The notes: generated by a model from the sequence alone, not told the origin. DNA of 64,000 nt from an uncultured Planctomycetales bacterium (GCA_964648665.1 CAZYOA010000007.1:4943-68942); one strand, 5' to 3'; counted from the first letter of the stretch, positions 1-25,253 are shown. Numbers and translations are program-made.

Positions 1-2
1 TA

Positions 3-1766
3 TTTGTTTCGTTAATTTGGTTCTTTTATTTTTTAATAAAATTTTGGCAGGAACCGCACGCTAAATTTTTTATTGGGATTATATTTTCAATAATGATTAT
101 TCTTAATTGTTATTTGCCGTTTTATTGGTTGTCTGTGTTTGTTTTTGTCATTATTTCATATTTAGTTGTTTATTTCCTTCGCATTAAAAAGGATTTAAGA
201 TTTATTAGTAATTTTATTTCAAAGAATTATATTGTTGTTATTATTTGCTTTTTTGCTCTCGGAGTGTCGCTTTTGTCTGCGTTTAAGGCTTATCATTTGA
301 CAAAAACAGGAGAAGTTATTTGCTTTGAAAGGAAAGCTTATAATTCAGATCCTTATCAAGGTGGAGCGGTGGTGTCTTATGATAAAATTGCTAACAGTTC
401 TCCGAGCACATTATCGTTTTCTGATAGCATTCTTTTAGATCGCGATAGTGTTCTTCCAAGTTCGATTATTTTCTTTTATGTTTCATTCTTTGTTTGGTGT
501 ATTTTGTGCTTAAGCATATTTAACAAATTAATAAAGAAAAGCATTATTTTAATTTTGTTACTTTTGATTTTGATGTGCGTTATTATCGCCGATCAATCGA
601 TTCTTTTTAGAAGTATTTTTCATGTATTCTTTTGGTTTTCTTATATTCGTAATCTTGGAGTATTTGTTTTTGTTTTCTTGCCAATTTTAATTTTGTTTGC
701 AACCTTACAACTCAAGTTGATTTTAAGGGATAAATTATTTAAAAATCGTCGTGCTTGCTTGATATTTATTTCGATTGTTCATGGTGGTCTTTTGACGCTG
801 CTTGTTTTAAATAATGGATTCTTTTCAAGCTATATAACTGTTCTTCTGAGTTTCCTATTCTTTATTTTGATTAATCTAGAAGTTCAGATTCGTCGATGGG
901 TTTATTTTGTTCTTTTAGGTCTCTGTATTGTTGTGCAGCCTGTTGAAGTTATGTGGCGTTTTAGGGATAATATAGAAAACATGTCCTTTATACGAGATAA
1001 GCCAGCAATTCTTGATGCCGTTGCGTATCCTCCCAAAAAAGTAAAATTTTATTTTTCTAGGCCTTCTCGAGAAAACAGTGAAGAGACTTTTACTGCTAGA
1101 GATGCTCACTTGCTTCGGATAAGGATGACAGGGTCAGCTGGATTTCCATTTGAGGGAGCCGGATTTCCGCCTGAATGGTCTTTTTATTTATCTAAAAATA
1201 TTTCTGAAGAAGAATTAAATCAATATGTGCAACATAAGTTTTATATTTATGATCATGTTAAAGCTATTGATAGCGAAGAGAGAAGTTTAAATCTTTTAAA
1301 AGAAATATTCGAAAAGAATACTAACTTAGCTTTGATTTCGAAAGATGGGAAAATAAATAAAAATAATCTGCTTACAAGCTTAGAGATTGATGATCAGGCA
1401 AGCATTGTTGATCGAGCAAAGATTATTTTATCTTCATCTAATTTATTTAGTGTTCTTGATTTCAATACGAATAGTATAAAAGTTGAAACGAATTTTGATA
1501 AAGTAAAGTTTTTAGTTTATACAGATAGCTTCCAATCGGATTGGCGAGTTTTTGTAAATGGACAAAAACAAAACCTGTATCGCTCTAACTTTGGCTTTAA
1601 AGGAGTCGCGCTTCCTAAGGGAAAGAATGTTGTTTTCTTTAAATATTCTCCTCTAGGTGGGCAGATGACATATTTCTTAATATTTTCTACTTATATTGGA
1701 TTATTCTTATGGCTAATTATTTTATTTATTTGGTCATCAAGAAATAGAAAGAAAGAAGATTGTTAA
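3..1766 (+). CDS. YfhO-like polytopic membrane (GT-C type) glycosyltransferase, paralog A; 5' end cut by window edge
   Basis: The frame is open from nt 3, although the track starts it at internal ATG 93. It aligns colinearly with the C-terminal ~590 aa of ORF 2824..5040. It has many TM helices, then a soluble domain (..FLVYTDSFQSDWRVFVNGQ..FKGVALPKG..YSPLGG) and a terminal TM helix, which is the YfhO-type layout. Confidence 0.6.
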   Translation, partial: FVSLIWFFYFLIKFWQEPHAKFFIGIIFSIMIILNCYLPFYWLSVFVFVIISYLVVYFLRIKKDLRFISNFISKNYIVVIICFFALGVSLLSAFKAYHLTKTGEVICFERKAYNSDPYQGGAVVSYDKIANSSPSTLSFSDSILLDRDSVLPSSIIFFYVSFFVWCILCLSIFNKLIKKSIILILLLLILMCVIIADQSILFRSIFHVFFWFSYIRNLGVFVFVFLPILILFATLQLKLILRDKLFKNRRACLIFISIVHGGLLTLLVLNNGFFSSYITVLLSFLFFILINLEVQIRRWVYFVLLGLCIVVQPVEVMWRFRDNIENMSFIRDKPAILDAVAYPPKKVKFYFSRPSRENSEETFTARDAHLLRIRMTGSAGFPFEGAGFPPEWSFYLSKNISEEELNQYVQHKFYIYDHVKAIDSEERSLNLLKEIFEKNTNLALISKDGKINKNNLLTSLEIDDQASIVDRAKIILSSSNLFSVLDFNTNSIKVETNFDKVKFLVYTDSFQSDWRVFVNGQKQNLYRSNFGFKGVALPKGKNVVFFKYSPLGGQMTYFLIFSTYIGLFLWLIILFIWSSRNRKKEDC

Positions 1767-1767
1767 A

Positions 1768-2625
1768 GTGATTTGGAATAATTTTCTACAAAATAAACCA
1801 TTGAAGCAAGCATGGATGTTTATTCTTAGGCGAAATATTATTTTGTATTTTTTGCTTGGAGTGGCAAGTTATTTTTTGATCGGCGAAGTGCGTTTTCCAA
1901 GCAAAATTAATGTGTATCATCTAAATCAGCTTAAAGAAGGTGTTTTGGCGATTGATATGAAGCTTAACAAAGATTTGAAGGTGAGTGCGTATAATTTAAA
2001 ATCAGGCGTTGCCTATTTTGATAGAATTGCAGAACTTGTAGGACCTTTAGCTAGCACGGACGGAAACTTGGGATTTTGTTATTATTATTTAAATGATTAT
2101 AACAAGGCTGTTGCTGCTTATGATGAGGCTATCAAGCGAGATTCGTTAAGGTATACTTATTGGTGGGATCAGGGAATGATTTATTTTAAGCTTAAAGATT
2201 ATAAAAAGGCAATTTCTTATCTTAAAAAAGCTGTTGAATCAATTCCAGATGCCCCTCGTTATTATATTGAAACGGCAAAGGCTTATTCTGGCTTAAACTG
2301 GGATCAATATTTGCTTGAACTTATTCCGTATTATATTCAGCAATCAAAAGACGATGCGCAACTTGCGTATCTTGTTTTGACTCAATGCTATTGGCACATT
2401 GATGAGATTGACAAAGCACGAGATGCTATTTTGGTGGGACTTTTAATTGCTTCAAAAGAAAAAAATCCTTATTATTTAGAGAATTTTGAATATTTCTTAA
2501 AATATAATGGAGAAAAGGGAATTCTTTATTCGAATCTAGAGCCTAAGCTGCATTTTGATTATGATTTTAACCGAGTTCAGATTATTGTCGAAGTTTTTCG
2601 TCGAGCTTCAGATTCATATAAATAA
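1768..2625 (+). CDS. membrane-anchored TPR-repeat protein, partner of YfhO-like paralog A
   Basis: GTG start lies 1 nt after the upstream TAA. An N-terminal TM helix (IILYFLLGVASYFLIG) is followed by TPR-like repeats (GNLGFCYYYLNDYNKAVAAYDEAIKRD; WWDQGMIYFKLKDYKKAISYLKKAVE). The N-terminus MIWNNF.. is conserved with 5042..5917 right up to the GTG, which supports this start. Confidence 0.6.
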   Translation: MIWNNFLQNKPLKQAWMFILRRNIILYFLLGVASYFLIGEVRFPSKINVYHLNQLKEGVLAIDMKLNKDLKVSAYNLKSGVAYFDRIAELVGPLASTDGNLGFCYYYLNDYNKAVAAYDEAIKRDSLRYTYWWDQGMIYFKLKDYKKAISYLKKAVESIPDAPRYYIETAKAYSGLNWDQYLLELIPYYIQQSKDDAQLAYLVLTQCYWHIDEIDKARDAILVGLLIASKEKNPYYLENFEYFLKYNGEKGILYSNLEPKLHFDYDFNRVQIIVEVFRRASDSYK

Positions 2626-2823
2626 ATGTATAGATAAAAATAGATTTTGAAGTTTTGCATTCGACTTAACTTTTAGATTTTCTATTATTTTATTTTTTAT
2701 ATTAATCTAAATATAATTCTTTCTTTATAGAAAATGAACTTTCGTATGTGATTTGCGATTGTATTTAGTGTTGGCTAAGTTTTGAGATATGTTTAAGAAG
2801 AGGATTGGGCAGAGGATTTTAAT

Positions 2824-5040
2824 ATGAAAAAGAAATTTTTCTTGGTTTTGAAATTTATTATTCCTTTTGGTCTTTGGCTTTTTCTTTTTTCTGATTCTGT
2901 TTTAGGGAAGCTTCCCGTTGATTCAGATTGTTATTCATTTTATTCTCTCTTAAAGTATTTTTTAGATAATCTACGAACAGGACACTTTGCTTTGTGGTGT
3001 CCTTTTGTTATGTGGGGAGGGTCATTTTTAGTCGAATTAAATGCATTCGGAGCATTTAATCCATTCTGGCTTTTAGCTTTATTTTTAAATAAAGTTGGAC
3101 TTAATTTTTATTTGTCTTTTTTATGGACGTATATTGGATATTTCTTTATTGGACATATCGGGTTTTATTTTCTTGCAAAAACGTATTTAAAAGATAAATT
3201 CTGCGCCTATGCTGCTTTTCTTCTGCTTCTTTTTTCTACATCTGGATTTCTCATTTTTCATTATCCATATCATGTTTTTATATTCGTTCCTTTAGTTTGG
3301 TTTTTTTATTTTTTTATAGAATTTCTTCAAAAGTTTGATAAAAAGTTTTTTGTTGGAATCATGTTTTTGTTAATGATCATTTTCAATTGTTATTTGCCAT
3401 TTTATTGGTTTTCTGTATTTGTTTTTGTTGTTATTTTGTATATTATAATTTATTTTTCTCGTATTAGGCGGGATTTTAAGTTGATTATTCGTTTTTTTGT
3501 AAAAAATTATGTGGTTGCAATTCTTTGCGTGTTGGCTCTTTGTGTATCAATGGTTCCTGCGCTCAAGGCTTATGACTTGACAAAGAGCGGAGAAGTTGTT
3601 TGTTTTGAAAGAATGCCAAAAAAGGATGTCTATCAAGGTGGAGCGTTAGTTTCTTATGATTCTGTTGCGAAGTCTGCTCCCAGTACGGCATTATTTGTAG
3701 ATAGCCTGATGCTAGATCGTGACAGTGTCCTTCCAAAATCAATTGTATTTTTTTATGTTTCTTTCTTTGTTTGGAGTATTTTGCTTTTAAGTATTTTTAA
3801 TAAAATAAAAAAGAAAAGTATTTTTTTGGGAATGCTTCTTTTAATTTTATTATTTATTCTTATTGTTGATCAATCTATTGTTTTTAAAGGTATTTTTTAT
3901 TTATTCTTTTGGTTTTCGTATATTCGAAACATTGGATTGTTTAGTTTTATTTTTCTTCCTGTTTTAATTTTATTTTCAGCTCTACAGTTGAAGTCGATAC
4001 GAAAGGAGAAGTTATTTGATAATCGATATTCTCGACTAGTTGCTATCTTTATTGTTCACGCTGGTCTTTTAACATTTCTTATTTTAAGTAATGGACTTTT
4101 TTCGAGTTATCTAGCTGTTTCTTTAAGCTTTTTATTTTTTATTTTAATTGCACTTCAAGCGCGCATTCAAAAATGGCTTTGGATTGTCTTGTTGGGATTA
4201 TGTGTTGTCTCTCAGCCTGTCGAGGTTATGTGGCGCTTTAGAGATAATATTCAAAATATGTCTTTTTCTTTTAATAAGTTACCAATTTTTAATAGTATTA
4301 ATTATCCTCCAGCGAAAATAAAGTTTAATTATTCAAGAGTTATCTTTGATAGTAAAAATAAGTATAAAATTAAATCTCCTCATGCGTCGCGAATTCAGAT
4401 GGCTGATTTGATTAATTTTGTTAACACAGGAGCTGGGTTTCCACCTAAATGGTCTTTTTATTTATCTAAAAATATTTCTGAAGAAGAATTAAACCAGTAT
4501 GTGCAGCATAAATTTTATATCTATGATCATGTTAAAGTTATTGATAGTGAAGATGAAAGTTTAAATCTTTTAAAAGAAATATTCGAAAAGAATATTAACT
4601 TAGCTTTAATTTCGAAAGATAAGAAAAGGAATGAAAATAATTTTACTGCAGGTTTAGAGATTAATGGTCAAATAAATATTATTGATCGAGCAAAGATTAT
4701 TTTATCTTCGTCTAATCTATTTAGTGTTCTTGATTTCAATACGAATAGCATAAAGGTTGAAACAAATTTTGATAAAGAAAAGTTTTTAGTTTATACGGAT
4801 AGCTTTCAGTCGGATTGGCGAGTGTTTGTAAATGGACAAGAACAAGACTTGTGTCGATCTAATTTTGGTTTTAAAGGGGTTGCGCTTCCTAGGGGGCAGA
4901 ATATCGTTCTATTTGAATATTCTCCTCTAGGTGGGCAGTTGATATATTTTCTAATATTTTTTATTTATATTGGATTATTTTTATGGTTAATTATTTTGTT
5001 TCTTTGGCCATCAAGAAATAGAAAGAAAGAAGATTTTTAA
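2824..5040 (+). CDS. YfhO-like polytopic membrane (GT-C type) glycosyltransferase, paralog B (full length, 738 aa)
   Basis: The N-terminus (..DSDCYSFYSLLKYFLDNLRTGHFALWCPFVMWGGSF..NAFGAFNPFWLL) resembles the YfhO N-terminal loop. It has more than 10 predicted TM helices. The C-terminal soluble domain plus terminal TM helix are near-identical to paralog A. Confidence 0.6.
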   Translation: MKKKFFLVLKFIIPFGLWLFLFSDSVLGKLPVDSDCYSFYSLLKYFLDNLRTGHFALWCPFVMWGGSFLVELNAFGAFNPFWLLALFLNKVGLNFYLSFLWTYIGYFFIGHIGFYFLAKTYLKDKFCAYAAFLLLLFSTSGFLIFHYPYHVFIFVPLVWFFYFFIEFLQKFDKKFFVGIMFLLMIIFNCYLPFYWFSVFVFVVILYIIIYFSRIRRDFKLIIRFFVKNYVVAILCVLALCVSMVPALKAYDLTKSGEVVCFERMPKKDVYQGGALVSYDSVAKSAPSTALFVDSLMLDRDSVLPKSIVFFYVSFFVWSILLLSIFNKIKKKSIFLGMLLLILLFILIVDQSIVFKGIFYLFFWFSYIRNIGLFSFIFLPVLILFSALQLKSIRKEKLFDNRYSRLVAIFIVHAGLLTFLILSNGLFSSYLAVSLSFLFFILIALQARIQKWLWIVLLGLCVVSQPVEVMWRFRDNIQNMSFSFNKLPIFNSINYPPAKIKFNYSRVIFDSKNKYKIKSPHASRIQMADLINFVNTGAGFPPKWSFYLSKNISEEELNQYVQHKFYIYDHVKVIDSEDESLNLLKEIFEKNINLALISKDKKRNENNFTAGLEINGQINIIDRAKIILSSSNLFSVLDFNTNSIKVETNFDKEKFLVYTDSFQSDWRVFVNGQEQDLCRSNFGFKGVALPRGQNIVLFEYSPLGGQLIYFLIFFIYIGLFLWLIILFLWPSRNRKKEDF

Positions 5041-5041
5041 A

Positions 5042-5917
5042 GTGATTTGGAATAATTTTTTTAAAAATAAAACATTAAAACAAATCTGGATATTTATTTC
5101 TAGACGAAATATTGCTTTTTATTTTCTCCTTGGAATCGCAAGTTATTTTTTGATTGGGAAGGTTCATTTTTTGAACAAAATTAATATTTATCATCTCGAG
5201 CGACCTAGAGAAGACATGTTTAAAGCTGACATCGAATCAGTTGTTGGTAAAAATTTGGCGGTTCATAACCTGAAGTCAGGCATTGTTTATTTTAAAGCGA
5301 TAATGAATCTTACAGAGCCTTTGGCTAGTACTTATGGAAATCTAGGATTTTGTTATTATTATTTAAATGATTATAGCAAAGCTATTGTTGTCTATGGCGA
5401 GGCTATTAAACGAGACCCTCTAAGGTATATTTACTGGTGGGATCAGGGAATGATTTATTTTAAGCTTAAAGATTATAAAAAGGCAATTTTTTATATTAAA
5501 AAAGCTGTTGAATTGATTCCAGATACTTCGCGTTATTATATTGATACAGCTAAATCTTTTCCTATTTTACGATGGCAAGCTCAGATTCTTGAGCTTATTC
5601 CTTTTGCTCTTGAGCGGGCGTTGAATGATATGCAGATTGCATATCTTGTTTTAGCACAGTGTTATTGTAACGTTGGTCAAATTGATGATGCTCAGAATGC
5701 TATTTCATCAGGATTTTTAATTGCTTCAAAAAGATCAAATTCTTTCTATTTAAAGAATTTTGAATATTTCTTGAAACACGGCAAGGAAGGAAGCATTTTT
5801 TTCCCTGGTCTAAAGCCTGAACTACATTTTGATTATAGCTTTAATCGGACGCAAGTTGCTATAAAGGTTTTGGATAAAGTTATAGCTGAAAAACAAGGAT
5901 TGACCAAACAGGACTAA
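5042..5917 (+). CDS. membrane-anchored TPR-repeat protein, partner of paralog B
   Basis: The junction has the same architecture as 1764-1770 (TAA, 1 nt, GTG). It has a TM helix (IAFYFLLGIASYFLIG) and TPR repeats with stretches identical to 1768..2625. Confidence 0.6.
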   Translation: MIWNNFFKNKTLKQIWIFISRRNIAFYFLLGIASYFLIGKVHFLNKINIYHLERPREDMFKADIESVVGKNLAVHNLKSGIVYFKAIMNLTEPLASTYGNLGFCYYYLNDYSKAIVVYGEAIKRDPLRYIYWWDQGMIYFKLKDYKKAIFYIKKAVELIPDTSRYYIDTAKSFPILRWQAQILELIPFALERALNDMQIAYLVLAQCYCNVGQIDDAQNAISSGFLIASKRSNSFYLKNFEYFLKHGKEGSIFFPGLKPELHFDYSFNRTQVAIKVLDKVIAEKQGLTKQD

Positions 5918-5988
5918 GGTTTTCTATATATCTTGATTTTTTCTTATCTTCTTATATAATAATTTAAATATATTAATATATATCTTTT

Positions 5989-6885
5989 ATGATGCAAACA
6001 AAATATCATTCCTATAAAATTCTTCCTGAAGTCATTGTGCCAAGCGATACTGATTATATTGGCATTTATTTAACGAATCGCTGTTTTCTTTCCTGCTCGT
6101 ACTGCATTACCAATATGTTTAATCCTTATGTAAACACAAAAATTTTAAAAGAATTATCAGCATCGGATTGGATTTCATCGATTAATCGATTAAAGTTACC
6201 TGATGGCGTTCCCATAACATTGCAAGGGGGGGAGCCATTTTTACATAAAGGAATATGGGAAATTTTAGAGAATGTTAATCAGAAGATTGATATTTTAACA
6301 GCTCTTCCTGAAAATGTCACAGTACAGGCTGTAAAAGCTTTAAAAGCATTAGATTGGAATAAGAGAGACGCTCCTTATCCAACGATTCGAGTTAGTTTTC
6401 ATCCAGGGCAAAATGATTATAAGGTTTTGATTGACCGAATTAGTAAATTGCAAGAATTCTTAAGTATCGGCTTGTTTCATATTGAGCATCCAGAATACCT
6501 TAATCTTACCGATGAGATTTGTCAGTATGCAAAAAGGCGAGGCGTTGAATTTCGAACAAAAAGTTTCTTAGGGATATGGAACAAAGAGATGTATGGGCGT
6601 TATAAATATTTAGATGCAGCTGTTGGGCATGTTGTTAAGAAAAGTGTTCAATGTCGAAATACGGCATTGCCAGTAGCGCCTGATGGGATAATTTATCGTT
6701 GCCATTCTGATTTATATGCCACAAGAAATGATCTATCTTTAGGGCGACTAAGTGATCCTGATCTTAAAATCGAGCACACATATCGTCAGTGTGGTAATTA
6801 TGGGTTATGTAGCCCATGTGATATAAAAATTAAAACAAATCATCTTCAGCAAGATGGTTATTGTTCAGCGGATATTAAATCTTGA
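5989..6885 (+). CDS. radical SAM enzyme with Cys-rich C-terminus
   Basis: CX3CX2C motif CFLSCSYC near the N-terminus. Gly-rich SAM motif LQGGEPFL. C-terminal cysteines (CRNT..CHSD..CGNYGLCSPC) suggest an auxiliary Fe-S cluster. Confidence 0.7.
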   Translation: MMQTKYHSYKILPEVIVPSDTDYIGIYLTNRCFLSCSYCITNMFNPYVNTKILKELSASDWISSINRLKLPDGVPITLQGGEPFLHKGIWEILENVNQKIDILTALPENVTVQAVKALKALDWNKRDAPYPTIRVSFHPGQNDYKVLIDRISKLQEFLSIGLFHIEHPEYLNLTDEICQYAKRRGVEFRTKSFLGIWNKEMYGRYKYLDAAVGHVVKKSVQCRNTALPVAPDGIIYRCHSDLYATRNDLSLGRLSDPDLKIEHTYRQCGNYGLCSPCDIKIKTNHLQQDGYCSADIKS

Positions 6886-6887
6886 AA

Positions 6888-7811
6888 ATGAAAAGAAAAA
6901 AACGCGTTTTAATTATTAAAACAGGGTTTTCTGAGTTTTTAGACAAAGGAATTTCTGCTACAGTCAGCCTTGGAGATGTTTTGTTTTGTACGATTGTTTT
7001 ACATTTGTACAAGAATGATCATGTGACTTGGGTTGTTTCAAATCAAGCAAAGGATCTTCTTGAGGGGAACCCGTATATTGATAGAGTCTTAGTTTTTAAT
7101 CCGTCTATTTTTAAGAAAATTTATAAAACAAAATATGATATTTTTATTAATTTAGAAAAAGATATTGGTATTTGTGCGTTCTTAGGGAATATTGCAGCAA
7201 AGAAAAGATATGGGTTTTATTTTAATGAAAAGAAGTTTGATATCGAAACTTTTAAGAAGCAAACACGCCATCTTCTTTCTGGGCAAGAAAATCAAAATAA
7301 TATTAGCGAAAATACTGCTGAAATTCTTTATAAGGCTCTTGGGGACAAGTGGGATGGTCAGGGGTTAATTCTAAATCGAAAGAAAAATAAGCCGGTATAT
7401 GATATTGGTTTTAATTATGCTGTTGGTTCAAAGTGGCCAACAAAAGCATGGCCGAAAGAAAATTGGAAAGAATTAGAGAAGACGTTAAAAAAAGATTTTT
7501 CTATTAGTTGGCAAGAAGGGCATAAAAACCTGAATGCTTATATTCGTTGGATTAATAAATGTCGCGTTATTGTGACTTCAGATTCTTTAGGTCAAATGAT
7601 AGGCCAGGCGTTAGGAAAAAAGGTTGTCACGTTGTTTGGGCCGACTAATCATAAGCGCATGCAGAGAATGCCTGGAATCTATATTGTCAATTCTTCGACA
7701 AGATGTTCACATAAGCCGTGTTATATGCCATTTTGCCAGAATTCTAAATTTTGCATGAAAGATATTACACCATTATCTGTTAATAAGAAAATAAGAGGTA
7801 TTTTGAAATGA
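6888..7811 (+). CDS. glycosyltransferase family 9 (heptosyltransferase-like)
   Basis: N-terminal RVLIIKTGFSEFLD..GDVLFCTIVLHLYK pattern and C-terminal ..VIVTSDSLGQMIGQALGKKVVTLFGPT.. typical of GT9. The track starts at a TTG (6882) overlapping the upstream stop, so ATG 6888 is preferred. Confidence 0.55.
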   Translation: MKRKKRVLIIKTGFSEFLDKGISATVSLGDVLFCTIVLHLYKNDHVTWVVSNQAKDLLEGNPYIDRVLVFNPSIFKKIYKTKYDIFINLEKDIGICAFLGNIAAKKRYGFYFNEKKFDIETFKKQTRHLLSGQENQNNISENTAEILYKALGDKWDGQGLILNRKKNKPVYDIGFNYAVGSKWPTKAWPKENWKELEKTLKKDFSISWQEGHKNLNAYIRWINKCRVIVTSDSLGQMIGQALGKKVVTLFGPTNHKRMQRMPGIYIVNSSTRCSHKPCYMPFCQNSKFCMKDITPLSVNKKIRGILK

Positions 7812-8803
7812 TTAAGAATATTCTTGTGACTGGGGCGGGGGGATATGTTGGATCTGTTCTTGTTCCTAAGTTGTTATTAGCTGGATATACGGTTAAAGCT
7901 TTAGATTGGTTTTTATATGGAGAGCATGTTTTTGACGAGATCAAAGATCAGTCGAATTTGGTTAAGATTAAAGGGGATGTTCGTAACCAAGAAATTATTG
8001 AAGAGCTCATGGTGGGCGTTGATGCGGTTATTCATTTAGCGTGTATTTCTAATGATCCAAGCTATGAACTTAATCCAGAGCTATCAAAAACAATTAATTA
8101 TGACGCTTTTTTACCACTTGTTGATATTGCTAAGAAAAACAGTGTCGAGCGCTTTATTTTTGCATCAAGCTCAAGTGTTTATGGCGTTAAGGAAGACCCC
8201 AATGTAACAGAAGAGCTTTCCTTGGAACCTTTGACAGATTATTCAAGATATAAAGTATTGTGTGAAGAATATCTTTTAAAGCAGCAGAGTGAAGAATTTA
8301 CGGTGCTTATTTTAAGACCAGCAACCGTTTGTGGATATTCGCCAAGATTGCGTTTAGATTTAACGGTTAATATTTTAACAACGCATGCTATTTGTAATAA
8401 TAAAATTCTTGTTTTTGGAGGAGATCAAAAAAGGCCGAATATCCATATTGATGATATAGCAGATTTGTATGTTGAATCTTTAAATTATTCAAAAGAAAAG
8501 ATAGCGGGAAAGATTTTTAATTGTGGATATGAAAATCATACTGTTTTAGAAATTGCGAATATGGTTAAAAAGGTTGCGGGAAAAGATGATACCACTCTTG
8601 AAGTTCAGGATTCTAACGATAAGCGATCGTATAGCATTTCGTCAGAAAAGATAAAGAAAGAGTTGGGGTTTTCTCCTCGGCGAGATATTTCGCAAGCTAT
8701 TGAAGATTTAAAGAAAGCATTTGAAAATGGGCTGGTTAAGGATGCTTTGAGCAATCCAAATTATTACAATATTAAGACAATGTTAGCAGCAAATATTAAA
8801 TAA
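7808..8803 (+). CDS. NAD-dependent nucleotide-sugar epimerase/dehydratase (extended SDR)
   Basis: Rossmann motif VTGAGGYVGS and catalytic YxxxK (YSRYK). ATGA overlap with the upstream gene. Confidence 0.75.
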   Translation: MIKNILVTGAGGYVGSVLVPKLLLAGYTVKALDWFLYGEHVFDEIKDQSNLVKIKGDVRNQEIIEELMVGVDAVIHLACISNDPSYELNPELSKTINYDAFLPLVDIAKKNSVERFIFASSSSVYGVKEDPNVTEELSLEPLTDYSRYKVLCEEYLLKQQSEEFTVLILRPATVCGYSPRLRLDLTVNILTTHAICNNKILVFGGDQKRPNIHIDDIADLYVESLNYSKEKIAGKIFNCGYENHTVLEIANMVKKVAGKDDTTLEVQDSNDKRSYSISSEKIKKELGFSPRRDISQAIEDLKKAFENGLVKDALSNPNYYNIKTMLAANIK

Positions 8804-8827
8804 TATAGGCGGTAGTAGTTATTTATT

Positions 8828-9625
8828 ATGGTAAAGAAAATATTTTCTTTTTTAAAACAATTTCCCCCCACTTTCGTTATTGGATACGAAATTTATTCTC
8901 GTATGCCATTTCTTCTTCCGCATGATAAAAGTTATTTTATCTTTCCTCATCTAATGTCAGAAAAGAAGGGCCTAATTTTAGATGTTGGTGCCAATAATGG
9001 TATTTCATCGGCATATTTTCACAAAGTTAATCCTCAGTGGAAAATTATTGCTTTTGAGCCGAATTCAATTCATCGGCGATCGCTGAATCGTTTAAAAAGA
9101 AATTTTAAAGGATTTGATTATCGGCCTATTGGACTTTCAGATCGAGATCAAATATTAACATTTTATACTCCAGTATATTTTGGTTTTCCGCAGCATTGTG
9201 AAACAAGCTCAGAAATAAAATTAAAGAGTTGTTGTCGAAGTCATTGTTTTAGTTTTCTAACAAAGAGAATGAAGTTTCATGAACAAAAAGTTGAGGTTAA
9301 AACTATTGATGAATTAAATTTAAATCCTGATGTTATTAAAATTGATTGTGAAGGTGATGATTTTAAGATTTTAAAAGGAGCAAAAAATACTCTAGAGCGC
9401 TGTCGCCCTTTTATTGTGTTAGAAAATAATGAAAAAGATTACCTTGATCTTGTTCAGTTTGTTGAATCTTTTAATTTTGAGGTTTTCTTTTATGATTATC
9501 AGAAAAGAGAATTATTTGGATCATCGGAGGTTTTTACAAGAGATCAAGATCGCAAAAGAAATCTTGTTATCATTCCTCGAGAAAAGATTGAAGATATTAA
9601 GAAAAAAATAATGGAAAAGAAATAA
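8828..9625 (+). CDS. FkbM-family methyltransferase
   Basis: LILDVGANNGISSAYF SAM-binding motif and the ..IKIDCEGDDFKILKGA.. motif, both characteristic of the FkbM family. Confidence 0.6.
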   Translation: MVKKIFSFLKQFPPTFVIGYEIYSRMPFLLPHDKSYFIFPHLMSEKKGLILDVGANNGISSAYFHKVNPQWKIIAFEPNSIHRRSLNRLKRNFKGFDYRPIGLSDRDQILTFYTPVYFGFPQHCETSSEIKLKSCCRSHCFSFLTKRMKFHEQKVEVKTIDELNLNPDVIKIDCEGDDFKILKGAKNTLERCRPFIVLENNEKDYLDLVQFVESFNFEVFFYDYQKRELFGSSEVFTRDQDRKRNLVIIPREKIEDIKKKIMEKK

Positions 9626-9643
9626 ATATTTGCCATTTGAAAT

Positions 9644-10723
9644 ATGAACAAAAATATAAATAAACAACCTTATAGTCATTTAAAGATCCTTTGGCATCCT
9701 GATAAGCTTCAGGCTTTAAGGGATGGTGTTATGACAGCTCCCCTCTATGTAAGAATAAAGCCAACGAATCGATGTAATCATCGATGTTTTTATTGTAGCT
9801 ATGCGGATAAGGATTTGAAGTTAAGAGAATCTGTTCAATCTTTTGATGAAATTCCATGGAAAATATTAAAAGAAGCTATTTCAGATTTGGCGGACATAAA
9901 GATAAAAGCTGTTACGTTTAGTGGTGGGGGAGAGCCTTTAATGTACCCTTATATTGAAGACGCCTTTAAGTTGATTTTAAAGAAAAAGATTGATCTTTCT
10001 TTGATTACAAATGGACAGTTGCTTTGCGGAAAGAAAGCAGATTTGTTATCTCGGGCAAAATGGGTAAGAATTTCAATGGATAGTTGCAAGTCAAAAACAT
10101 TTTCTAAGATTCGAGGAATTTCGGAAAAGAGTTTTCATGTTATTGCAACTAACATTCGAGCATTTGCAAAGAAGAAGAATAAAAGTTGCGAATTAGGCAT
10201 TAATTTTGTTGTGACTCATCAAAATGCAGATCAAGTTTATGATATGGCAAAATTTGTTAAAGGTTTGGGCGTTAATCATATTAAATATACAGCTCGAATT
10301 ACACGCAATTTATTTGCATATCATAAACCATTTAAGGATATAGTTGTTGAGCAAATTTATAAAGCTCAAAAAAAATTTGGTGATTCTACTTTTAAAACTG
10401 TTAATAAATATGAAGATGATTTTGTGCTTTCGATGAAGGCAAAACGAACATATCATTTTTGTCCAATGGTTCAAGTTTTGACGGTTATTGCCGCTGATTC
10501 TAAAGTTTATCTGTGTCACGATAAGGCGTATGTTCCAAGTGGAGAAATTGGCGATTTAAAGAAGAAGATGTTTAAAGAAATTTGGTTTTCATCAAAAACA
10601 AAGAAAATATTTAAGAATCTTGACCCAGTAAAACAGTGTCGGCATCATTGCGTTTATGATCAACGCAATATTTTTATTAATCAGATTATTTCTAAGCCAG
10701 ATAGCCATGCTAACTTTATTTAA
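9644..10723 (+). CDS. radical SAM enzyme (second)
   Basis: CX3CX2C motif CNHRCFYC, FSGGGEPLMYP, and Cys-rich C-terminus (CPMV..CHDKAY..CRHHC). Confidence 0.7.
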   Translation: MNKNINKQPYSHLKILWHPDKLQALRDGVMTAPLYVRIKPTNRCNHRCFYCSYADKDLKLRESVQSFDEIPWKILKEAISDLADIKIKAVTFSGGGEPLMYPYIEDAFKLILKKKIDLSLITNGQLLCGKKADLLSRAKWVRISMDSCKSKTFSKIRGISEKSFHVIATNIRAFAKKKNKSCELGINFVVTHQNADQVYDMAKFVKGLGVNHIKYTARITRNLFAYHKPFKDIVVEQIYKAQKKFGDSTFKTVNKYEDDFVLSMKAKRTYHFCPMVQVLTVIAADSKVYLCHDKAYVPSGEIGDLKKKMFKEIWFSSKTKKIFKNLDPVKQCRHHCVYDQRNIFINQIISKPDSHANFI

Positions 10724-12254: not shown

Positions 12255-12261
12255 AATTATT

Positions 12262-12918
12262 ATGTCTGAAATTAATTTGCTTAAAAATTATCCTCAAACA
12301 AAAAGAAATCTTGATCAACGCATCGAAGAGAAAACAGAAGATGTTCGATTGATTGCGCGAGAATTCGGGAAAGATTTCTTTGATGGTGATCGAAAATATG
12401 GATACGGAGGGTATTTTTATAATTCAAGATTTTGGCAACCTGTTGTCTCAGATTTCAAGATGTATTATAGTCTCTCATCAAGTAGTCGTATTTTAGATGT
12501 TGGGTGCGGTAAGGGGTTTATGCTTTATGATTTTATGCAATTAATGCCCGGTATTAAGATTCGCGGAGTTGATGTATCTGAATATGCTATTGATAATGCA
12601 AAACAAGAAGTAAAACCTTTTTTAGAGATTTGCGATGCATCAAGTTTACCGTTTGAGGATAGTTCATTTGATTTGGTCATTTCAATCAACACTGTTCATA
12701 ATCTAGAAAGACAAAAGTGTTCTAAAGCGATTCAGGAAATTCAAAGAGTATCAAAAAAAGATTGTTTTATTACTGTTGATGCTTATCAAAACGAAGAAGA
12801 AAAAAAGAAGATGGATGCGTGGAATTTAACAGCCTTAACATATATGTCGGTTGATGAGTGGAAAGAATTCTTTGAAGAAGCTGGGTATCAAGGGGATTAT
12901 TTCTGGTTTATACCATAA
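12262..12918 (+). CDS. class I SAM-dependent methyltransferase
   Basis: Motif I ILDVGCGKGFML, with post-I and motif II (DLVISINTVHN). Confidence 0.7.
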   Translation: MSEINLLKNYPQTKRNLDQRIEEKTEDVRLIAREFGKDFFDGDRKYGYGGYFYNSRFWQPVVSDFKMYYSLSSSSRILDVGCGKGFMLYDFMQLMPGIKIRGVDVSEYAIDNAKQEVKPFLEICDASSLPFEDSSFDLVISINTVHNLERQKCSKAIQEIQRVSKKDCFITVDAYQNEEEKKKMDAWNLTALTYMSVDEWKEFFEEAGYQGDYFWFIP

Positions 12919-12946
12919 AATAGAAATTTTAAGGAAATTTAAGAGA

Positions 12947-13900: not shown

Positions 13901-13902
13901 TT

Positions 13903-14940: not shown

Positions 14941-14962
14941 TTCATAAAATTTAAGGTATTGC

Positions 14963-16806: not shown

Positions 16807-16824
16807 GGATTTATATTTAAAATT

Positions 16825-20503: not shown

Positions 20504-21426
20504 TGTCTAATCTAAGAAATGATTTTCCTAAAGTTGTTCATGAAGTTGGTCTTAGGGATCCAAATTTAGTTGTTTTAGTTGGAGACATCAGTCATTATCG
20601 TCTTCAAGGGTTTGCAAAAGATTGCCCAGGACGATATTACAATATTGGCATATGTGAGCCAACGATTGTTAATATGGCAGCAGGATTGTCGAAGATAGGT
20701 TTTTATCCAGTTGTTCATACCATCGCACCTTTTATTGTTGAAAGATCTTTTGAACAGATTAAAATTGATTTTTGTTATCAAAAATTAGGGGGAAATATTA
20801 TTACAGTTGGAAGCGCATTTGATTATGCGTATTTGGGTTGCACGCATCATTGCTATAATGATTTTGCTTTACTTTCGACCTTGCCCAATGTCGAACTTGT
20901 TTATCCTGCAAGTTATGAAGAGCTTGATTTACTTTTTGGACAAACATATAACAACGAATTCTTAACTTATTTTCGCGCGCCAATGTATGGACATGAAGTT
21001 TCATTTAAACCAAGCGATATTACAATTGGAAAAGCAATTCAGGTTCAAGAAGGTGAAGATCTAACTCTTGTGGCAGTTGGAACACAATTAAAATCAGCTA
21101 AAGAAGCAGCGGATGCTTTAAAAGAGCAAGGGATAAGTGTTGATTTAATTTATATTCATACTGTTAAGCCTTTGGATGCACAAACAATAAAAAAGAGTTT
21201 GAAGAAAACAAAGAAATGTTTGGTTATTGAAGAGCATGGAATTTTCGGTGGCGTTTATGATGCTGTGCTTAGGATTTCGCAAGAGTTAGACGAGATAAAG
21301 TGTTTTTCTATTTCGATTCCAAATGATTTTATAAGAGATTATGGAACATATCAGGATTTTTGTTTGAAGTTAGGGTTTTGCCAAGGTGGGGTTCTTAAAA
21401 AAATTAAAGAAGAGGTTTTGATATGA
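20503..21426 (+). CDS. transketolase, C-terminal (pyrimidine-binding) subunit
   Basis: YNIGICEPTIVNMAAGLS.. motif. ATG overlaps the upstream TGA, giving a split-transketolase pair. Confidence 0.8.
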   Translation: MSNLRNDFPKVVHEVGLRDPNLVVLVGDISHYRLQGFAKDCPGRYYNIGICEPTIVNMAAGLSKIGFYPVVHTIAPFIVERSFEQIKIDFCYQKLGGNIITVGSAFDYAYLGCTHHCYNDFALLSTLPNVELVYPASYEELDLLFGQTYNNEFLTYFRAPMYGHEVSFKPSDITIGKAIQVQEGEDLTLVAVGTQLKSAKEAADALKEQGISVDLIYIHTVKPLDAQTIKKSLKKTKKCLVIEEHGIFGGVYDAVLRISQELDEIKCFSISIPNDFIRDYGTYQDFCLKLGFCQGGVLKKIKEEVLI

Positions 21427-22142
21427 AACAATATTTCTCGATTATTGTGCCAGCGTTTAATGAAGAAAAACTTATCACAGACTCAATTGATTCTTTGGTT
21501 GATAACTTTGAGTCTACAAATACAAATTATGAAATTTTAGTTTTCAATGATGGCAGTACTGATCGAACAGGTGAAATTATTGATGAAATTTCTAAAAAGA
21601 ATAAGAATGTTAGAGCTATCCATCGAAAGGTTAATCGTGGAATTGGAGCAAGTACTCGCGAAGCTATAAAAATAGCTAAAGGAGATTGCATCGGTTGGTT
21701 TCCAGGGGATAACAGTATTACGAAAGAATCATATCGAGAATTGATTGTTTTTGCAAAATCTATGAGTGAAGATATTTTAATTACGTATTCTAAGAATAAT
21801 AGAAAACGACCTTTTTTGAGGCGTAATTTATCTAATATCTACACAGCTTTATTAAATTTCTTATTTCGATTAAATCTTAAATATTATAATGGCGCGTCTA
21901 TTCTTCCTGTTGATGTTGTTAGAAAATTTAATCTTCAGGCGAATTGTCATGACACGTTTGCTGAAGTTGTTGTCTTGACTATAAAATCTGGATGTTCATA
22001 TACGCAGCGTCCTTTTATACATAAACCTGGAACAGACAAAACATCTAAGGCTTTGTCCCTAAGGAATGTTTTTAATATTGCGAAGACATTTATGATTTTG
22101 ATAAAAATAGTATATTTCTCAAAACCCAATCAATCAACTTAA
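21423..22142 (+). CDS. family 2 glycosyltransferase (polyprenyl-phosphate sugar synthase-like, DPM1/GtrB type)
   Basis: FSIIVPAFNEE..VFNDGSTDRTGEII.. GT-A signature. ATGA overlap with the upstream gene, and directly precedes the third YfhO-like gene. Confidence 0.7.
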   Translation: MKQYFSIIVPAFNEEKLITDSIDSLVDNFESTNTNYEILVFNDGSTDRTGEIIDEISKKNKNVRAIHRKVNRGIGASTREAIKIAKGDCIGWFPGDNSITKESYRELIVFAKSMSEDILITYSKNNRKRPFLRRNLSNIYTALLNFLFRLNLKYYNGASILPVDVVRKFNLQANCHDTFAEVVVLTIKSGCSYTQRPFIHKPGTDKTSKALSLRNVFNIAKTFMILIKIVYFSKPNQST

Positions 22143-22155
22143 CGTCAAAAAGTTT

Positions 22156-24354
22156 ATGACAAAGAAGATCTTTTCTTTTCTAAAGTTTCTCGCTCCAATT
22201 TCTTTTTTAATATTTTTTCTATGGCCGATGGTATCCGGGAAAAAGTTTATTACAAGCGATACATCTGGCATGTTCGCGTTGATAAAGTTTTTCATAGCGA
22301 ACATTAGTTCAGGAGTTTTTCCTTTATGGAATCCTCTTTCAATGTGGGGATGTCCTGTTTTTATTGAGAATTGTTATTTTAGTGCGTATAATCCTGTTTG
22401 GCTTTTGATTTTAATTCTTTATAAGTTGGGGTTGAGTTATTATTTTTCTTTTCTTTTCACCTGGGTTCTTTATTATCTTTCAGGCGTGTTTGGATTCTAT
22501 TTGTTAGCAAAATCTTTTTTTAAGAGTTCTTTTTTAGGGTATATCTCGTTCTTATTATTGTTATTTTCAGCATTTAGTTTCTTATTCTTTTTTCATTCTA
22601 ATCATGTTTTTATTTATGTCCCCTCAATTTGGTTCTTTTATTTTCTTATTCGATTTATTCAAAAACCAGATCGTCCTATGTTGATGGGGTTAGTTTTTTC
22701 TTTAATGATTGTTTCGACAACTTATTTACCGATATATTGGATTATGTTTATGTTTGCTGTATCGTTATTGTGTTTACTTTTATTCTTTGATTCTTTTAAA
22801 AAGTCTTCTTTAGGTGTCTCTTGTTTTATAAAAAAGAATTATATCTTTACTTTAATTTGCTTTTTTATTTTAGGTGTATCTTGTTTTCCACCGCTAAAAG
22901 CATATTTTGCAACATCTGAGAAACAAGTCGTTTTTGTTGAGCGTCATATCCAAAACCCTGAAGAAGCTTTAGAGGAAGGGGCATCTATAAATCTTGAACA
23001 GCTAAAGCGAGTTGCTCTTGAGCCAAAGTATTTCTTAGAACAATTGTTTCCAGAGAGAAAAGATTTAACTAATCGCAATAAAGGAATTTCTTATGTTCCT
23101 ATTTTTGTTTATATTGTCTTACTTTTTAGTTTTATTTTGCCAATTACGAAGCGAAATGTTTTTCTTGCGCTTTTAACAATGCTGTTTTTCTTTATTATTA
23201 TTGGTCCTTTTTCTCCAGTTTATCCGTTTCTTTTTAATGTCTTGCCGTTTTTAAAATTAATTCATGGAATCGCTTTGTTTCGAATGGCGTTATTAATCTC
23301 ACTTATTCTTTTATCTGTTGAAAATCTTAAATTAATCTTAAGTCAGGAACATTTCTTTATAAAGAATGATCGTCCTTGGATGACAATGATTATTCATGGA
23401 GTTTTCTTGATTTTTCTTTTGATGCAAAAGAACCCATTTTGGACTTCATATGGCACAGTTCTTTTAAGTTATGCTTTTTTTATTTGTGCGTTTTCATCGA
23501 ATGAATTTTTAAAGAAGTTTCGTTTTTTAATTTTGTTTTTATGCATTATTCTTCAACCTGCGCAGATTTTCTTAAATTTCTCAAAACATATATATCAACC
23601 TGCACCTAAAGTTCAAGAATCATTTAAAATGCCATTAAATTCTATGAATTTTGTTTATGAGCGACCTGTTATGCAGGGTAAGTCTTCGATACCGGGTGAT
23701 CAGTATTATCAATATTTCTTATCTTTAAGTTCTATGTCTGAATATCCTGAAATGCTTTTATACGGAGGAGGGATGCCTTCTCGCTGGTCGTATCAATTAT
23801 ATGCTTCTTCGTCTGAAAAAATAATTTCAAATTATTTGAAATATCGATTTTTTGTTTATGATTACATTTTACCGGTTTACGATGAACAATTTGATGAAGT
23901 TGTCTTAGAAGATATTTTTAAAAATCAAGAAAACTTAGCATTTATTTCGCTTTCAAAAAGTGATTCTTTAGATCTATTAAATCTTTCTCAGTTTATGAGA
24001 AAGAAAAAGGATGCTTTAGAATTAGCCTTGCCAATCAAAAAGGAAATGGACCAATTCTCAGTTGTATCGTTTAATGCGAATTCAGTCAAAGTTAAAACAA
24101 ATTTTGATAAAAACAAATTTTTAGTTTATAACGATAGTTATTTGCCGGATTGGCGTGTCTTTGTAAACGGGAAGAAACAGAGAGTTTTTCGGTCTAACGT
24201 TGCTTTTAAGGGTGTTGTTTTGCCAGCGGGTGAAAATATTGTTGAGTTTAGATTTAATTTTCTTGGGGGGACGTACATGAACAATGCTATATACCTTGTT
24301 TATATAGTATTCTTTATTCTTATGATTTGTGCATTTATAATGAAGAAAGAATGA
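22156..24354 (+). CDS. YfhO-like polytopic membrane (GT-C type) glycosyltransferase, paralog C (divergent)
   Basis: Same length and architecture as 2824..5040. Conserved landmarks: ..FPLWNPLSMWGCPVF..YNPVWLL at the N-terminus and ..FLVYNDSYLPDWRVFVNGKKQ..FKGVVLPAGEN.. at the C-terminus. Confidence 0.55.
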   Translation: MTKKIFSFLKFLAPISFLIFFLWPMVSGKKFITSDTSGMFALIKFFIANISSGVFPLWNPLSMWGCPVFIENCYFSAYNPVWLLILILYKLGLSYYFSFLFTWVLYYLSGVFGFYLLAKSFFKSSFLGYISFLLLLFSAFSFLFFFHSNHVFIYVPSIWFFYFLIRFIQKPDRPMLMGLVFSLMIVSTTYLPIYWIMFMFAVSLLCLLLFFDSFKKSSLGVSCFIKKNYIFTLICFFILGVSCFPPLKAYFATSEKQVVFVERHIQNPEEALEEGASINLEQLKRVALEPKYFLEQLFPERKDLTNRNKGISYVPIFVYIVLLFSFILPITKRNVFLALLTMLFFFIIIGPFSPVYPFLFNVLPFLKLIHGIALFRMALLISLILLSVENLKLILSQEHFFIKNDRPWMTMIIHGVFLIFLLMQKNPFWTSYGTVLLSYAFFICAFSSNEFLKKFRFLILFLCIILQPAQIFLNFSKHIYQPAPKVQESFKMPLNSMNFVYERPVMQGKSSIPGDQYYQYFLSLSSMSEYPEMLLYGGGMPSRWSYQLYASSSEKIISNYLKYRFFVYDYILPVYDEQFDEVVLEDIFKNQENLAFISLSKSDSLDLLNLSQFMRKKKDALELALPIKKEMDQFSVVSFNANSVKVKTNFDKNKFLVYNDSYLPDWRVFVNGKKQRVFRSNVAFKGVVLPAGENIVEFRFNFLGGTYMNNAIYLVYIVFFILMICAFIMKKE

Positions 24355-25253
24355 GAATATTTATGAAAGTATTTGAGAAAATAAAAAATGGTTTTCCTTC
24401 TTTAAAGTTTATCTTCTTAAGATTTTGGCTTATTTATGCAATTTTCTTTGTTTCATATATATTTTTAGTTGAAGATGGAACGAGCTCTTTTAAAATCAAT
24501 GAAGTGCTTTCAGAAATGCGGGTTGATTCAGATCTTTCTTTTTATGTTAATGAGGGTGTTGAAATCGAGCCAGAAATGCTTTATCAGGCTATTGAGCATT
24601 ATATTTCCATTGGAGAGTCTGTCGGATTTGATGAGTATCTTCTAGGAAATATCGCAGCTTGTTACTTTTCTTTAGGAAATTATGAGAAATCAATTAACTT
24701 TTATAATCAAGCGATTGAAAAGAATCCACTTCTTTACACGTTTTATTTTGATAAGGGAATTATTTATATACGCTTAAAACAATACAAAGAAGCTTTAGTT
24801 TCTTTTGATCAATCAGTGAGTCTGGTGCCTGAAACTATTACTTATTATATTAATTTTTTTGAGAAACTTAATGGAAAAATAGAAAAATCTTTAGATTTCT
24901 CTCAGTTTTCTTCAGAAAAGAAAGCAGAGATGCAGACTCTTTTGCTGGCTGATTTTTATTCAATCCAGAAAAAGATTATTCAGGACATGAGCGTTATAAA
25001 CAAGGAGCTAAAAAAAATCAGAAGGATAACGCGAGACTTAAGATTAAATAAAGAAATTCAGAATTTTGAAAAACGCCTTTTGGTTTATCAAGAAAGACAA
25101 GATTTTAAATATTTTTTGTCTGGCGAAGAGTTAGATCATGATCCAGATAACCAGGGCAGCCAGATTGTTAATTTTTATTTTAGGAACTTTAGAAGTATCA
25201 TGCTTTTCTCTTCCTTACAAAAAAATCTAGTTGATATAAGTAAGAAATTTTAA
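24351..25253 (+). CDS. membrane-anchored TPR protein with C-terminal coiled coil, partner of paralog C
   Basis: ATGA overlap with the upstream stop. TM helix (FWLIYAIFFVSYIFLV). TPR block GNIAACYFSLGNYEKSINFYNQAIEKNP..FDKGIIYIRLKQYKEALVSF is homologous to the other two TPR partners. Confidence 0.5.
   Translation: MRIFMKVFEKIKNGFPSLKFIFLRFWLIYAIFFVSYIFLVEDGTSSFKINEVLSEMRVDSDLSFYVNEGVEIEPEMLYQAIEHYISIGESVGFDEYLLGNIAACYFSLGNYEKSINFYNQAIEKNPLLYTFYFDKGIIYIRLKQYKEALVSFDQSVSLVPETITYYINFFEKLNGKIEKSLDFSQFSSEKKAEMQTLLLADFYSIQKKIIQDMSVINKELKKIRRITRDLRLNKEIQNFEKRLLVYQERQDFKYFLSGEELDHDPDNQGSQIVNFYFRNFRSIMLFSSLQKNLVDISKKF

Follow-up and report, generated by a model that had tools for sequence, protein, structure and literature searches.

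A two-copy tandem array of a YfhO-like glycosyltransferase and TPR cassette with mosaic identity in an Omnitrophota glycosylation cluster

Gene layout and extent of the tandem array

The window analysed here is a stretch of 64,000 nucleotides (nt) from a genome deposited as an uncultured Planctomycetales bacterium (GCA_964648665.1 CAZYOA010000007.1:4943-68942); protein searches place the locus in Candidatus Omnitrophota. Positions 1-5917 of the window contain four open reading frames (ORFs) on one strand (+), at 3..1766 (cut by the window edge), 1768..2625, 2824..5040, and 5042..5917. They form two copies of one unit, each composed of a gene for a YfhO-like glycosyltransferase of the GT-C type and a gene for a partner protein with tetratricopeptide repeats (TPR). 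In copy A, the glycosyltransferase frame (3..1766, +) is open from nt 3 and lacks its 5' part in the window, and the partner gene (1768..2625, +) encodes a protein of 285 amino acids (aa) with an N-terminal transmembrane (TM) helix, followed by TPR repeats that match TPR_1/2/8. Copy B consists of the ORFs of a 738-aa glycosyltransferase (2824..5040, +) and of a 291-aa partner with TPR matches (5042..5917, +). In both copies the TPR gene starts 2 nt after the stop of the glycosyltransferase gene (1766/1768 and 5040/5042), and the two genes are translationally coupled. All ORFs are intact, and a dN/dS of ~0.2 suggests that both copies have been kept so under purifying selection.

In agreement with the original prediction, copy A (3-2625) and copy B (3283-5917) are colinear at an offset of 3274-3280 nt, and the proposed pairs of stops, 1766/5040 and 2625/5917, are correct. 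A repeat search pairs 1-2573 with 3281-5847 in direct-repeat families with a spacing of 3274-3280 nt, and a global alignment of the two copies requires just two gaps within the genes, of 3 nt each. Overall, the copies are 73% identical, with 59% aa identity between the TPR proteins. The sequence strings that had been cited as shared were located at 93/3373, 1176/4450 (44 nt), and 2161/5435 (55 nt). The 44-nt string lies inside an exact run of 46 nt starting at 1174, and the ATG at 93 is an internal Met and not the start of copy A. The full glycosyltransferase gene of copy A is found on a JGI contig (L003:1869-4091), where it starts 456 nt upstream of window nt 1. An exact-sequence look-up of copy B returned no record, and context was taken from an A-like protein (P0002), an orthologue (P0003), and a TPR protein (P0046). 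A consensus scan of 2500-6100 for promoters and terminators gave scores not above those of shuffled sequences.

The JGI contig L003 (6766 bp) matches window 1-4441 (4441 nt) at 99.93% identity and reaches 2325 nt further upstream. There, the neighbour of the complete copy A is a DUF4140/DUF4139 gene, which is unrelated to the cassette. As this gene, and no further unit, precedes copy A, the tandem array consists of exactly two units and does not continue upstream, as had been considered on account of the cut gene at the window edge. The ENA contig L085 is 99.98% identical to window 1-15917 (15917 nt), and the junction of copy A, spacer, and copy B is common to the three assemblies (NCBI, JGI, and ENA), which are a few single-nucleotide polymorphisms (SNPs) apart. 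The spacer between the units (2626..2823) is a unique sequence of 198 nt that is found in all three of them. To define the end points of the duplication, the spacer was aligned locally to the sequence upstream of copy A and downstream of copy B, with scores within the range of shuffled sequences. Assembly seems prone to break off in the N-terminal part of copy A, a region of 82% identity between A and B, and the short JGI contig alone reads through it.

Mosaic identity of the two copies and its origin

The two copies are not uniformly diverged. Their nt identity is about 70% in the membrane region of the glycosyltransferase, falls to about 50% at A 1035-1125, rises to 82-93% at A 1150-1800, falls again to about 50% at A 1890-1980, and reaches 82-94% at A 2070-2250, while the rest of the TPR gene is at 60-70%. 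The uneven conservation noticed originally is hence a property of the alignment, which ranges from ~50% to 94% identity along the unit. The perfectly identical block of 55 nt reported for the TPR genes is present at 2161/5435; it is the longest exact run between the copies, compared with a maximum of 41 nt in 1000 column shuffles. The last ~190 aa of the glycosyltransferases are indeed far more similar than the rest, but with 84% aa and 88% nt identity, their description as nearly identical was an overstatement.

To distinguish constraint from conversion, the copies were compared with an outgroup (O), the single-copy orthologous unit of a related genome (GCA_028693815.1, locus L001). It lies in a syntenic cluster with one unit, and the genes after O are orthologous to the genes after copy B. 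Codon alignments of A, B, and O covered 498 codons of the membrane domain and 190 codons of the C-terminal domain. In the membrane domain, A and B share 69% aa identity, with proportions of synonymous (pS) and nonsynonymous differences (pN) of 0.56 (95% confidence interval 0.49-0.62, given likewise below) and 0.18, respectively; the comparisons of A and B with O gave 57-60% aa identity, a pS of 0.61-0.65, and a pN of 0.25-0.26. In the C-terminal domain, the values for A and B are 84% aa identity, a pS of 0.31 (0.23-0.40), and a pN of 0.078, while those against O are 55%, 0.59-0.60, and 0.29. Sliding identity and synonymous divergence, which had been proposed together as a check of the patchwork, are therefore both strongly uneven, the latter with a pS of 0.31 in the C-terminal domain vs 0.56 in the membrane domain.

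Kimura distances, for which more family members were included, give the same picture. The ratio of the distance in the C-terminal domain to that in the membrane domain is 0.5 for A and B, 1.1-1.3 for either copy and O, and 2.8 for a close orthologue pair (P0005/P0006). Residues 541-625 form the least conserved part in all other pairs, and the A-B distance there is just 0.23. Orthologues hence keep the membrane domain at least as well as the C-terminal domain, yet between A and B the divergence drops even at silent sites. On these grounds, we reject constraint as the explanation of the mosaic.

An interval test at the sites variable in the triplet, together with the ratio of the A-B distance to the distance from the outgroup, d(AB)/d(xO), delimits two tracts of excess similarity. 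Tract 1 (A 1183..1878, B 4457..5152, +; offset 3274) spans the periplasmic C-terminal domain of the glycosyltransferase, its last TM helix, the stop/start junction at 1766/1768, and the N-terminal TM anchor of the TPR protein. At the variable sites, A and B differ at a fraction of 0.32 inside the tract vs 0.61 outside, with a chi-square of 77.4 vs a maximum of 25.9 in 300 permutations, and none of the 300 reached the observed value. With third codon positions alone, the chi-square was 28 vs a maximum of 19, again reached in 0/300 permutations. The tract enters the first ~37 codons (~110 nt) of the TPR gene, and elevated similarity between A and B continues to about codon 55; the N-terminus of the TPR protein in this region is 70-73% identical between A and B and just 37-44% between A and O. 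Tract 2 (A 2088..2269, B 5362..5543, +) lies in the canonical TPR repeats and holds the 55-nt identical run. When tract 1 was masked, it gave a chi-square of 37.8 vs a maximum of 24.3 in 300 permutations, at an A-B differing fraction of 0.29, and the same test placed a marginal third tract upstream of the window.

Along the unit, d(AB)/d(xO) takes values of 0.7-0.9 in the membrane domain, 0.25-0.55 in tract 1, ~0.3 in tract 2, and ~1.0 in two fast-evolving linkers. One of these connects the membrane domain with the C-terminal domain (A 1000..1150, B 4277-4424, +); with 48-56% nt and 44% aa identity, A and B are as diverged from each other here as each copy is from the outgroup, and the structure model described below has a predicted local distance difference test score (pLDDT) of 61-77. 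The other follows directly after the TM anchor of the TPR protein (A 1900..2020, B 5174-5294, +), where the identity of A and B (30% aa, 47-53% nt) equals the outgroup distances. Both tracts have already accumulated a dS of ~0.4 and a nt divergence of ~12%. The SNPs between the assemblies, at window positions 186, 416, and 3442, were considered as possible traces of ongoing conversion, but are all located outside the tracts and gave no information on it.

The original prediction had left the choice between ongoing gene conversion and strong C-terminal constraint. The drop in pS, the outgroup-controlled interval tests, and the extension of tract 1 across a gene junction support gene conversion between the adjacent copies as the best explanation of the mosaic, as far as the sequences can tell, while the divergence within the tracts gives no support to the notion that conversion is ongoing. 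The exact runs of 46 and 55 nt were also considered as traces of very recent micro-conversion, which was dropped, as by our own estimate such runs have a P of about 0.2 and 0.05, respectively, at a local identity of 88-90%.

We consider it quite likely that the locus is a two-copy tandem array of a GT-C and TPR cassette at the head of a glycosylation cluster, partly overwritten by later gene conversion. The unit would have been duplicated, or a diverged second copy placed alongside it, after or near the split from the single-copy relative. Both copies would have stayed intact under purifying selection while diverging to ~70% nt identity, until RecA-type non-reciprocal homologous recombination between the neighbours may have overwritten two stretches. 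The first, of ~0.7 kb, would run from the 3' third of the glycosyltransferase gene over the junction and ~110 nt into the TPR gene; the second, of ~0.18 kb, would lie within the TPR repeats. The differences of ~12% in the tracts would have been gathered since then, which very roughly dates the conversion to a third to a half of the age of the duplication, an estimate made rough by saturation. Of this account, the duplication with its extent, the mosaic, the rejection of constraint, and the family and fold of the enzyme are shown by the analysis, while the mechanism of recombination, its timing, and the biochemical role are inferred.

Other histories can be set against this one. The tandem arrangement itself could be suspected to be an artefact, with two strain alleles of one locus assembled head to tail or a repeat mis-assembled. 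The source of the window is a metagenome-assembled genome, the ENA contig (k141_694989, 131.5 kb) ends within copy A just 81 nt before the first nt of the window, a hint of difficult assembly there, and the 55-nt exact repeat has a common maximal k-mer size. However, one and the same junction is found in the three sources with few SNPs between them, the JGI contig runs continuously from the unrelated upstream gene via copy A into copy B, and copies of 73% identity with a unique 198-nt spacer do not look like alleles of one locus, which would share their flanks. The concordance of the three assemblies at this junction makes an artefact, against which the original prediction had cautioned, very unlikely, to the point that we regard it as negligible. 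It is also most improbable that the copies never recombined and were kept alike by much stronger purifying selection on the C-terminal domain and the TPR repeats. Two of the better-kept parts of the family are the last ~110 aa (66-74% identity of A and B to O) and the canonical TPR repeats (60-67%), and dN is very low in parts of the tract (0.01-0.08), as such selection would predict. But synonymous divergence halves in the tract as well, also in the third-position test, and in the same codons the divergence of A and B from O is as high as in the membrane domain. Moreover, residues 541-625, with their small A-B distance, are the least conserved in every other comparison, the tract continues past the stop/start junction into a TPR N-terminus that is poorly conserved, and in the control pair P0005/P0006 the rate of the C-terminal domain is 2.8 times that of the membrane domain.

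Two further alternatives accept recombination and change its order or its partners. A recent duplication of the whole unit, as old as the similar tracts, could have been followed by homologous recombination in which a diverged allele, imported from a different strain or species, replaced the membrane domain and the greater part of the TPR gene in one copy. With three sequences, the resulting pattern of two coalescence depths is formally the same as that of internal conversion; outside the tracts A, B, and O are near a trichotomy, with d(AB)/d(xO) of 0.7-1.0, and the faster evolution of the cassette compared with its neighbours (42-55% vs 64-88% identity to the relative) would fit frequent exchange. 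We nevertheless find this order of events unlikely: with at least three imported blocks that spare two internal islands, it is a less parsimonious account than two short conversion tracts; scans of genomes and metagenomes turned up no donor-like sequence; and A and B remain mutually nearest even outside the tracts, at a Kimura distance of 0.38 vs 0.53-0.60 to O. Copy A could also be a xenologue from a related Omnitrophota lineage that was inserted beside the resident copy B and recombined with it afterwards. The spacer at 2626-2823 without detectable similarity to the flanks of the units, the A-B divergence outside the tracts, which approaches the divergence from the single-copy relative, and the plentiful donors offered by several family members per Omnitrophota genome all speak for such an origin. 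It is still rather unlikely, as each copy is the closest relative of the other in every segment, the units agree exactly in gene order, spacing, and length, and the recurrence of tandem arrays of the cassette (L016, L033, and L034) suggests that local duplication is common. A foreign origin of copy A would, in any case, leave the explanation of the mosaic untouched.

Several observations weigh against the proposed duplication and conversion of a YfhO-like cassette. The comparison uses one close outgroup and no genome with orthologues of both copies, so that tree incongruence does not provide a proof of concerted evolution; a scan of genomes for a second one with both copies gave best matches of at most 41% identity, and a scan of metagenomes returned the same contig only. 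With a dS of 1.0-1.5 outside the tracts, synonymous sites there approach saturation, which leaves relative ages rough. The 5' edge of tract 1 abuts the fast-evolving linker, and its sharpness stems partly from differing constraint. Conversion is not a general property of these arrays, as the other tandem pair, on L016, is without a comparable C-terminal excess. Concerning the enzyme family, copy B scores below the YfhO gathering cutoff (23.2 vs 28.5 bits), and the E-values of the structural matches are weak (5e-3 and above).

Conversion between bacterial paralogues is known from the duplicated enterobacterial tuf genes and from the pilin and opa families. As in these cases, the patches of excess identity include synonymous sites and the tracts, of 0.2-0.7 kb, ignore gene boundaries. 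Unlike them, the tracts described here are old, having reached 12% nt divergence, and just about a quarter of the unit lies within them, so that the copies are on the whole diverging instead of staying identical; nor does the locus bear any sign of a programmed variation system. Partial conversion between tandem paralogues is thus ordinary genome evolution, for which the locus offers a clean and well-controlled example from an uncultured phylum. It also advises caution, as domain-wise identity of paralogues need not mean constraint. The L016 pair (40% identity) had been examined as a second C-terminal mosaic and was discarded, as no excess was present in its C-terminal part. In a relative-rate test, the TPR protein of copy B showed 35 unique aa changes vs 20 in copy A (Tajima test, p = 0.04), a weak hint of faster evolution in the copy at the ancestral position (copy B) that is too weak to build on; for the glycosyltransferases of A and B the difference was not significant.

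The glycosyltransferase and its TPR partner

The large protein of the unit is a distant GT-C glycosyltransferase of the YfhO family. Against the Pfam YfhO profile (PF09586, gathering cutoff 28.5 bits), copy A scores 30.3 bits and a third, more distant unit of the window 31.6 bits, both above the cutoff, and copy B scores 23.2 bits, below it. These matches are confined to the last ~130 residues, at profile positions ~690-832 of 835. A comparison of whole profiles with hhalign extends the homology: an alignment of the Omnitrophota clade (A1) matched an alignment of 14 PF09586-carrying proteins, two of them named YfhO in their source (A3), with a probability of 99.94 and an E-value of 2.9e-37 over 626 columns, covering 22-709 of 748. 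A sequence search of the PDB with the family profile gave chance-level matches only.

An AlphaFold2 model of the copy B enzyme (pLDDT 81.8, predicted TM-score 0.84) has a polytopic helical domain, a low-confidence linker at ~480-540, a domain of alpha/beta and beta-sandwich structure at 540-700, and a final TM helix. The top matches of a Foldseek search of the PDB were the GT-C enzymes AglB, EmbA/B, PglB, ArnT, and AftD, with probabilities of 0.9-1.0, E-values of 5e-3 to 1e-1, and TM-scores of 0.3-0.5. The C-terminal beta-sandwich superposes on the corresponding module of AftD with a root-mean-square deviation of 2.0 Å. Among the sequences of A1, at least 90% retain D35 in the first outer loop, as do A, B, and O. 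The hhalign comparison aligns the Asp stretch of A1 (I~~Dt~s; DSDCYS in copy B) with an S-D stretch of A3. A single Asp, D71, is invariant in A3. The Asp of the first loop may be catalytic.

YfhO enzymes use undecaprenyl-phosphate-linked sugars, loaded by a partner of the GT-A fold, and glycosylate teichoic acids outside the membrane (PMC8035078); they also glycosylate Ser/Thr-rich regions of membrane proteins (PMC12041528). The enzymes of the window resemble the YfhO systems of Bacillus subtilis and Staphylococcus aureus (CsbB-GtcA-YfhO) and of streptococci (PgtC2, PgfM1/PgfM2) in their full-length profile homology, the modelled GT-C fold, and the Asp in the first outer loop. A small GT2 enzyme is encoded in the same cluster, here directly before the third unit. 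Like YfhO and AftD, they have an extracytoplasmic C-terminal beta-sandwich, which in those proteins has been proposed to bind the acceptor (PMC8035078). Two YfhO paralogues in one operon are found in the Pgf system of Streptococcus mutans, too (PMC12041528). They differ from Firmicutes YfhO in forming a distant, Omnitrophota-specific clade, in being nearly always paired, and at times fused, with a TPR protein, a pairing that is not known from Firmicutes YfhO, and in their host, which belongs to an uncultured phylum of the diderm type. By homology, the GT-C enzymes would take a sugar built by the cluster off a polyprenyl-phosphate carrier and attach it to an acceptor in the periplasm or beyond it. 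Such a transfer is what we infer from the sequences, with the two copies probably differing in donor or acceptor specificity. No teichoic acids are known from this phylum.

The TPR protein of copy B is all-helical in its AlphaFold2 model (pLDDT 68), with a TM helix at residues 10-37 and the repeats at 49-246. According to the positive-inside rule, the enzyme is predicted to end, and the TPR protein to begin, in the cytoplasm, with the TPR domain in the periplasm, a topology with which natural fusions of the two proteins agree. To follow the pairing across the phylum, 80 loci from other Omnitrophota genomes were analysed, which contained 78 full-length homologues of the glycosyltransferase. A same-strand TPR gene follows in 57 of the 78, the two proteins are fused in 2/78, the contig ends in 3/78, and no partner was detected in 16/78. 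In both fusions the order is GT-C, then TPR (L034 9959-13372, 1137 aa, and L043 9950-13177, 1075 aa), which is evidence for joint action of the two proteins. Elsewhere in Omnitrophota, the cassette occurs in tandem arrays (L016 1667-7978, L033 4844-8875, and L034 9959-14052), and the genomes of the phylum carry several members of the YfhO-like family.

A combination of a GT-C membrane domain that depends on polyprenyl-phosphate sugars with a TPR domain is also present in the eukaryotic protein O-mannosyltransferases TMTC1-4 and TMEM260 and in bacterial PMT/ArnT-like proteins with C-terminal TPRs (for the TMTC architecture and its membership in the GT-C/PMT clan, see PMC7801869; for TMEM260, PMC10214176). 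In the cassette, the TPR domain is predicted to be non-cytoplasmic, and the fusions on L034 and L043 keep the order of GT-C and TPR. In the TMTC proteins, the TPR domain lies in the lumen of the endoplasmic reticulum. Unlike in TMTC proteins, the GT-C domain belongs to the YfhO branch and is not PMT/ArnT-like, with no PMT match in the Pfam scan; the TPR part is a separate, coupled gene product with its own TM anchor, and the catalytic domain is separated from the TPR part by an additional beta-sandwich domain and TM helix. The likeness, as it appears from this comparison, is hence one of architecture only. By the same analogy, the TPR partner probably has a part in holding or selecting the acceptor.

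A more far-reaching proposal is that the YfhO-like and TPR cassette is a phylum-wide, multi-copy, modular device for surface glycosylation, with the TPR protein as the acceptor-selecting adaptor and the region of tract 1 as a docking interface that is interchangeable between paralogous pairs, while the catalytic and acceptor-binding parts diversify. We regard this as tentative and, on balance, doubtful. No pairing of YfhO and TPR proteins stood out in the titles and abstracts of the literature searched, and, to judge from these, the split, sometimes fused arrangement of a YfhO-type GT-C enzyme and a TPR protein does not seem to have been described. The cassette may be the more useful by-product of the analysis, as a YfhO-type GT-C enzyme with a dedicated TPR partner that is Omnitrophota-wide, multi-copy, sometimes fused, and fast-evolving. 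If the TPR protein is an acceptor adaptor, the design of the eukaryotic TMTC proteins would extend to a split bacterial system, and variable envelope glycosylation would be indicated in a phylum of very small, possibly host-dependent cells.

The surrounding sugar cluster

The tandem array stands at the start of a cluster of sugar-modifying and glycosylation genes of roughly 25 kb, all on the same strand (window 1-25253), which encodes radical SAM/SPASM enzymes, a GT9-like transferase, epimerases/dehydratases, FkbM, TylF and C-methyltransferases, a short-chain dehydrogenase/reductase, and two thiamine-dependent E1/transketolase-like gene pairs (12851-14940 and 19688-21426). The E1/transketolase-like pairs, the radical SAM/SPASM enzymes, the C-methyltransferase, and the TylF O-methyltransferase suggest an unusual, branched or heavily methylated sugar. 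In a comparison with the syntenic cluster of the single-copy relative (window 1-17739 vs L001 10001-22217), identity to the orthologues is 42-55% for the cassette proteins and 64-88% for the neighbouring sugar genes; the cassette is therefore the fast-evolving part of the cluster. Absent from the cluster of the relative are the FkbM methyltransferase (8828-9625), a 532-aa polytopic membrane protein (10656-12254), and the extra copy A, which together make up the differences between the otherwise syntenic clusters. The 532-aa protein, which has a soluble C-terminal part, gave no Pfam or NCBIfam match, and was rejected as a fourth member of the glycosyltransferase family with an hhalign probability of 0.7.

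A third, ancient paralogous unit closes the cluster (22156..25253, +). It consists of a 732-aa GT-C glycosyltransferase (22156-24354) and a 308-aa TPR protein (24327-25253), which in BLASTP comparisons show 35% full-length identity to copy B and 27-43% identity, respectively, and match Pfam YfhO (31.6 bits) and TPR families. Directly upstream lies the gene of the GT2 enzyme (21423..22142, +), a glycosyltransferase of the GT-A fold with 239 aa that matches PF00535 at 1e-27. The NCBIfam models PpgS, ArnC-type, and PgfS matched it weakly, all far below their cutoffs, and the protein is a candidate polyprenyl-phosphate sugar synthase. The arrangement of the GT2 gene followed by the third unit recalls csbB-yfhO. 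Family scans recognised no gene for a GtrA-type flippase in 1-25253.

The remainder of the window has ordinary chromosomal content. In the 64 kb, no tRNA gene and no Rfam family at gathering score was found. Nearly all genes of the window (1-64000) lie on the + strand, and the GC skew is steadily positive.

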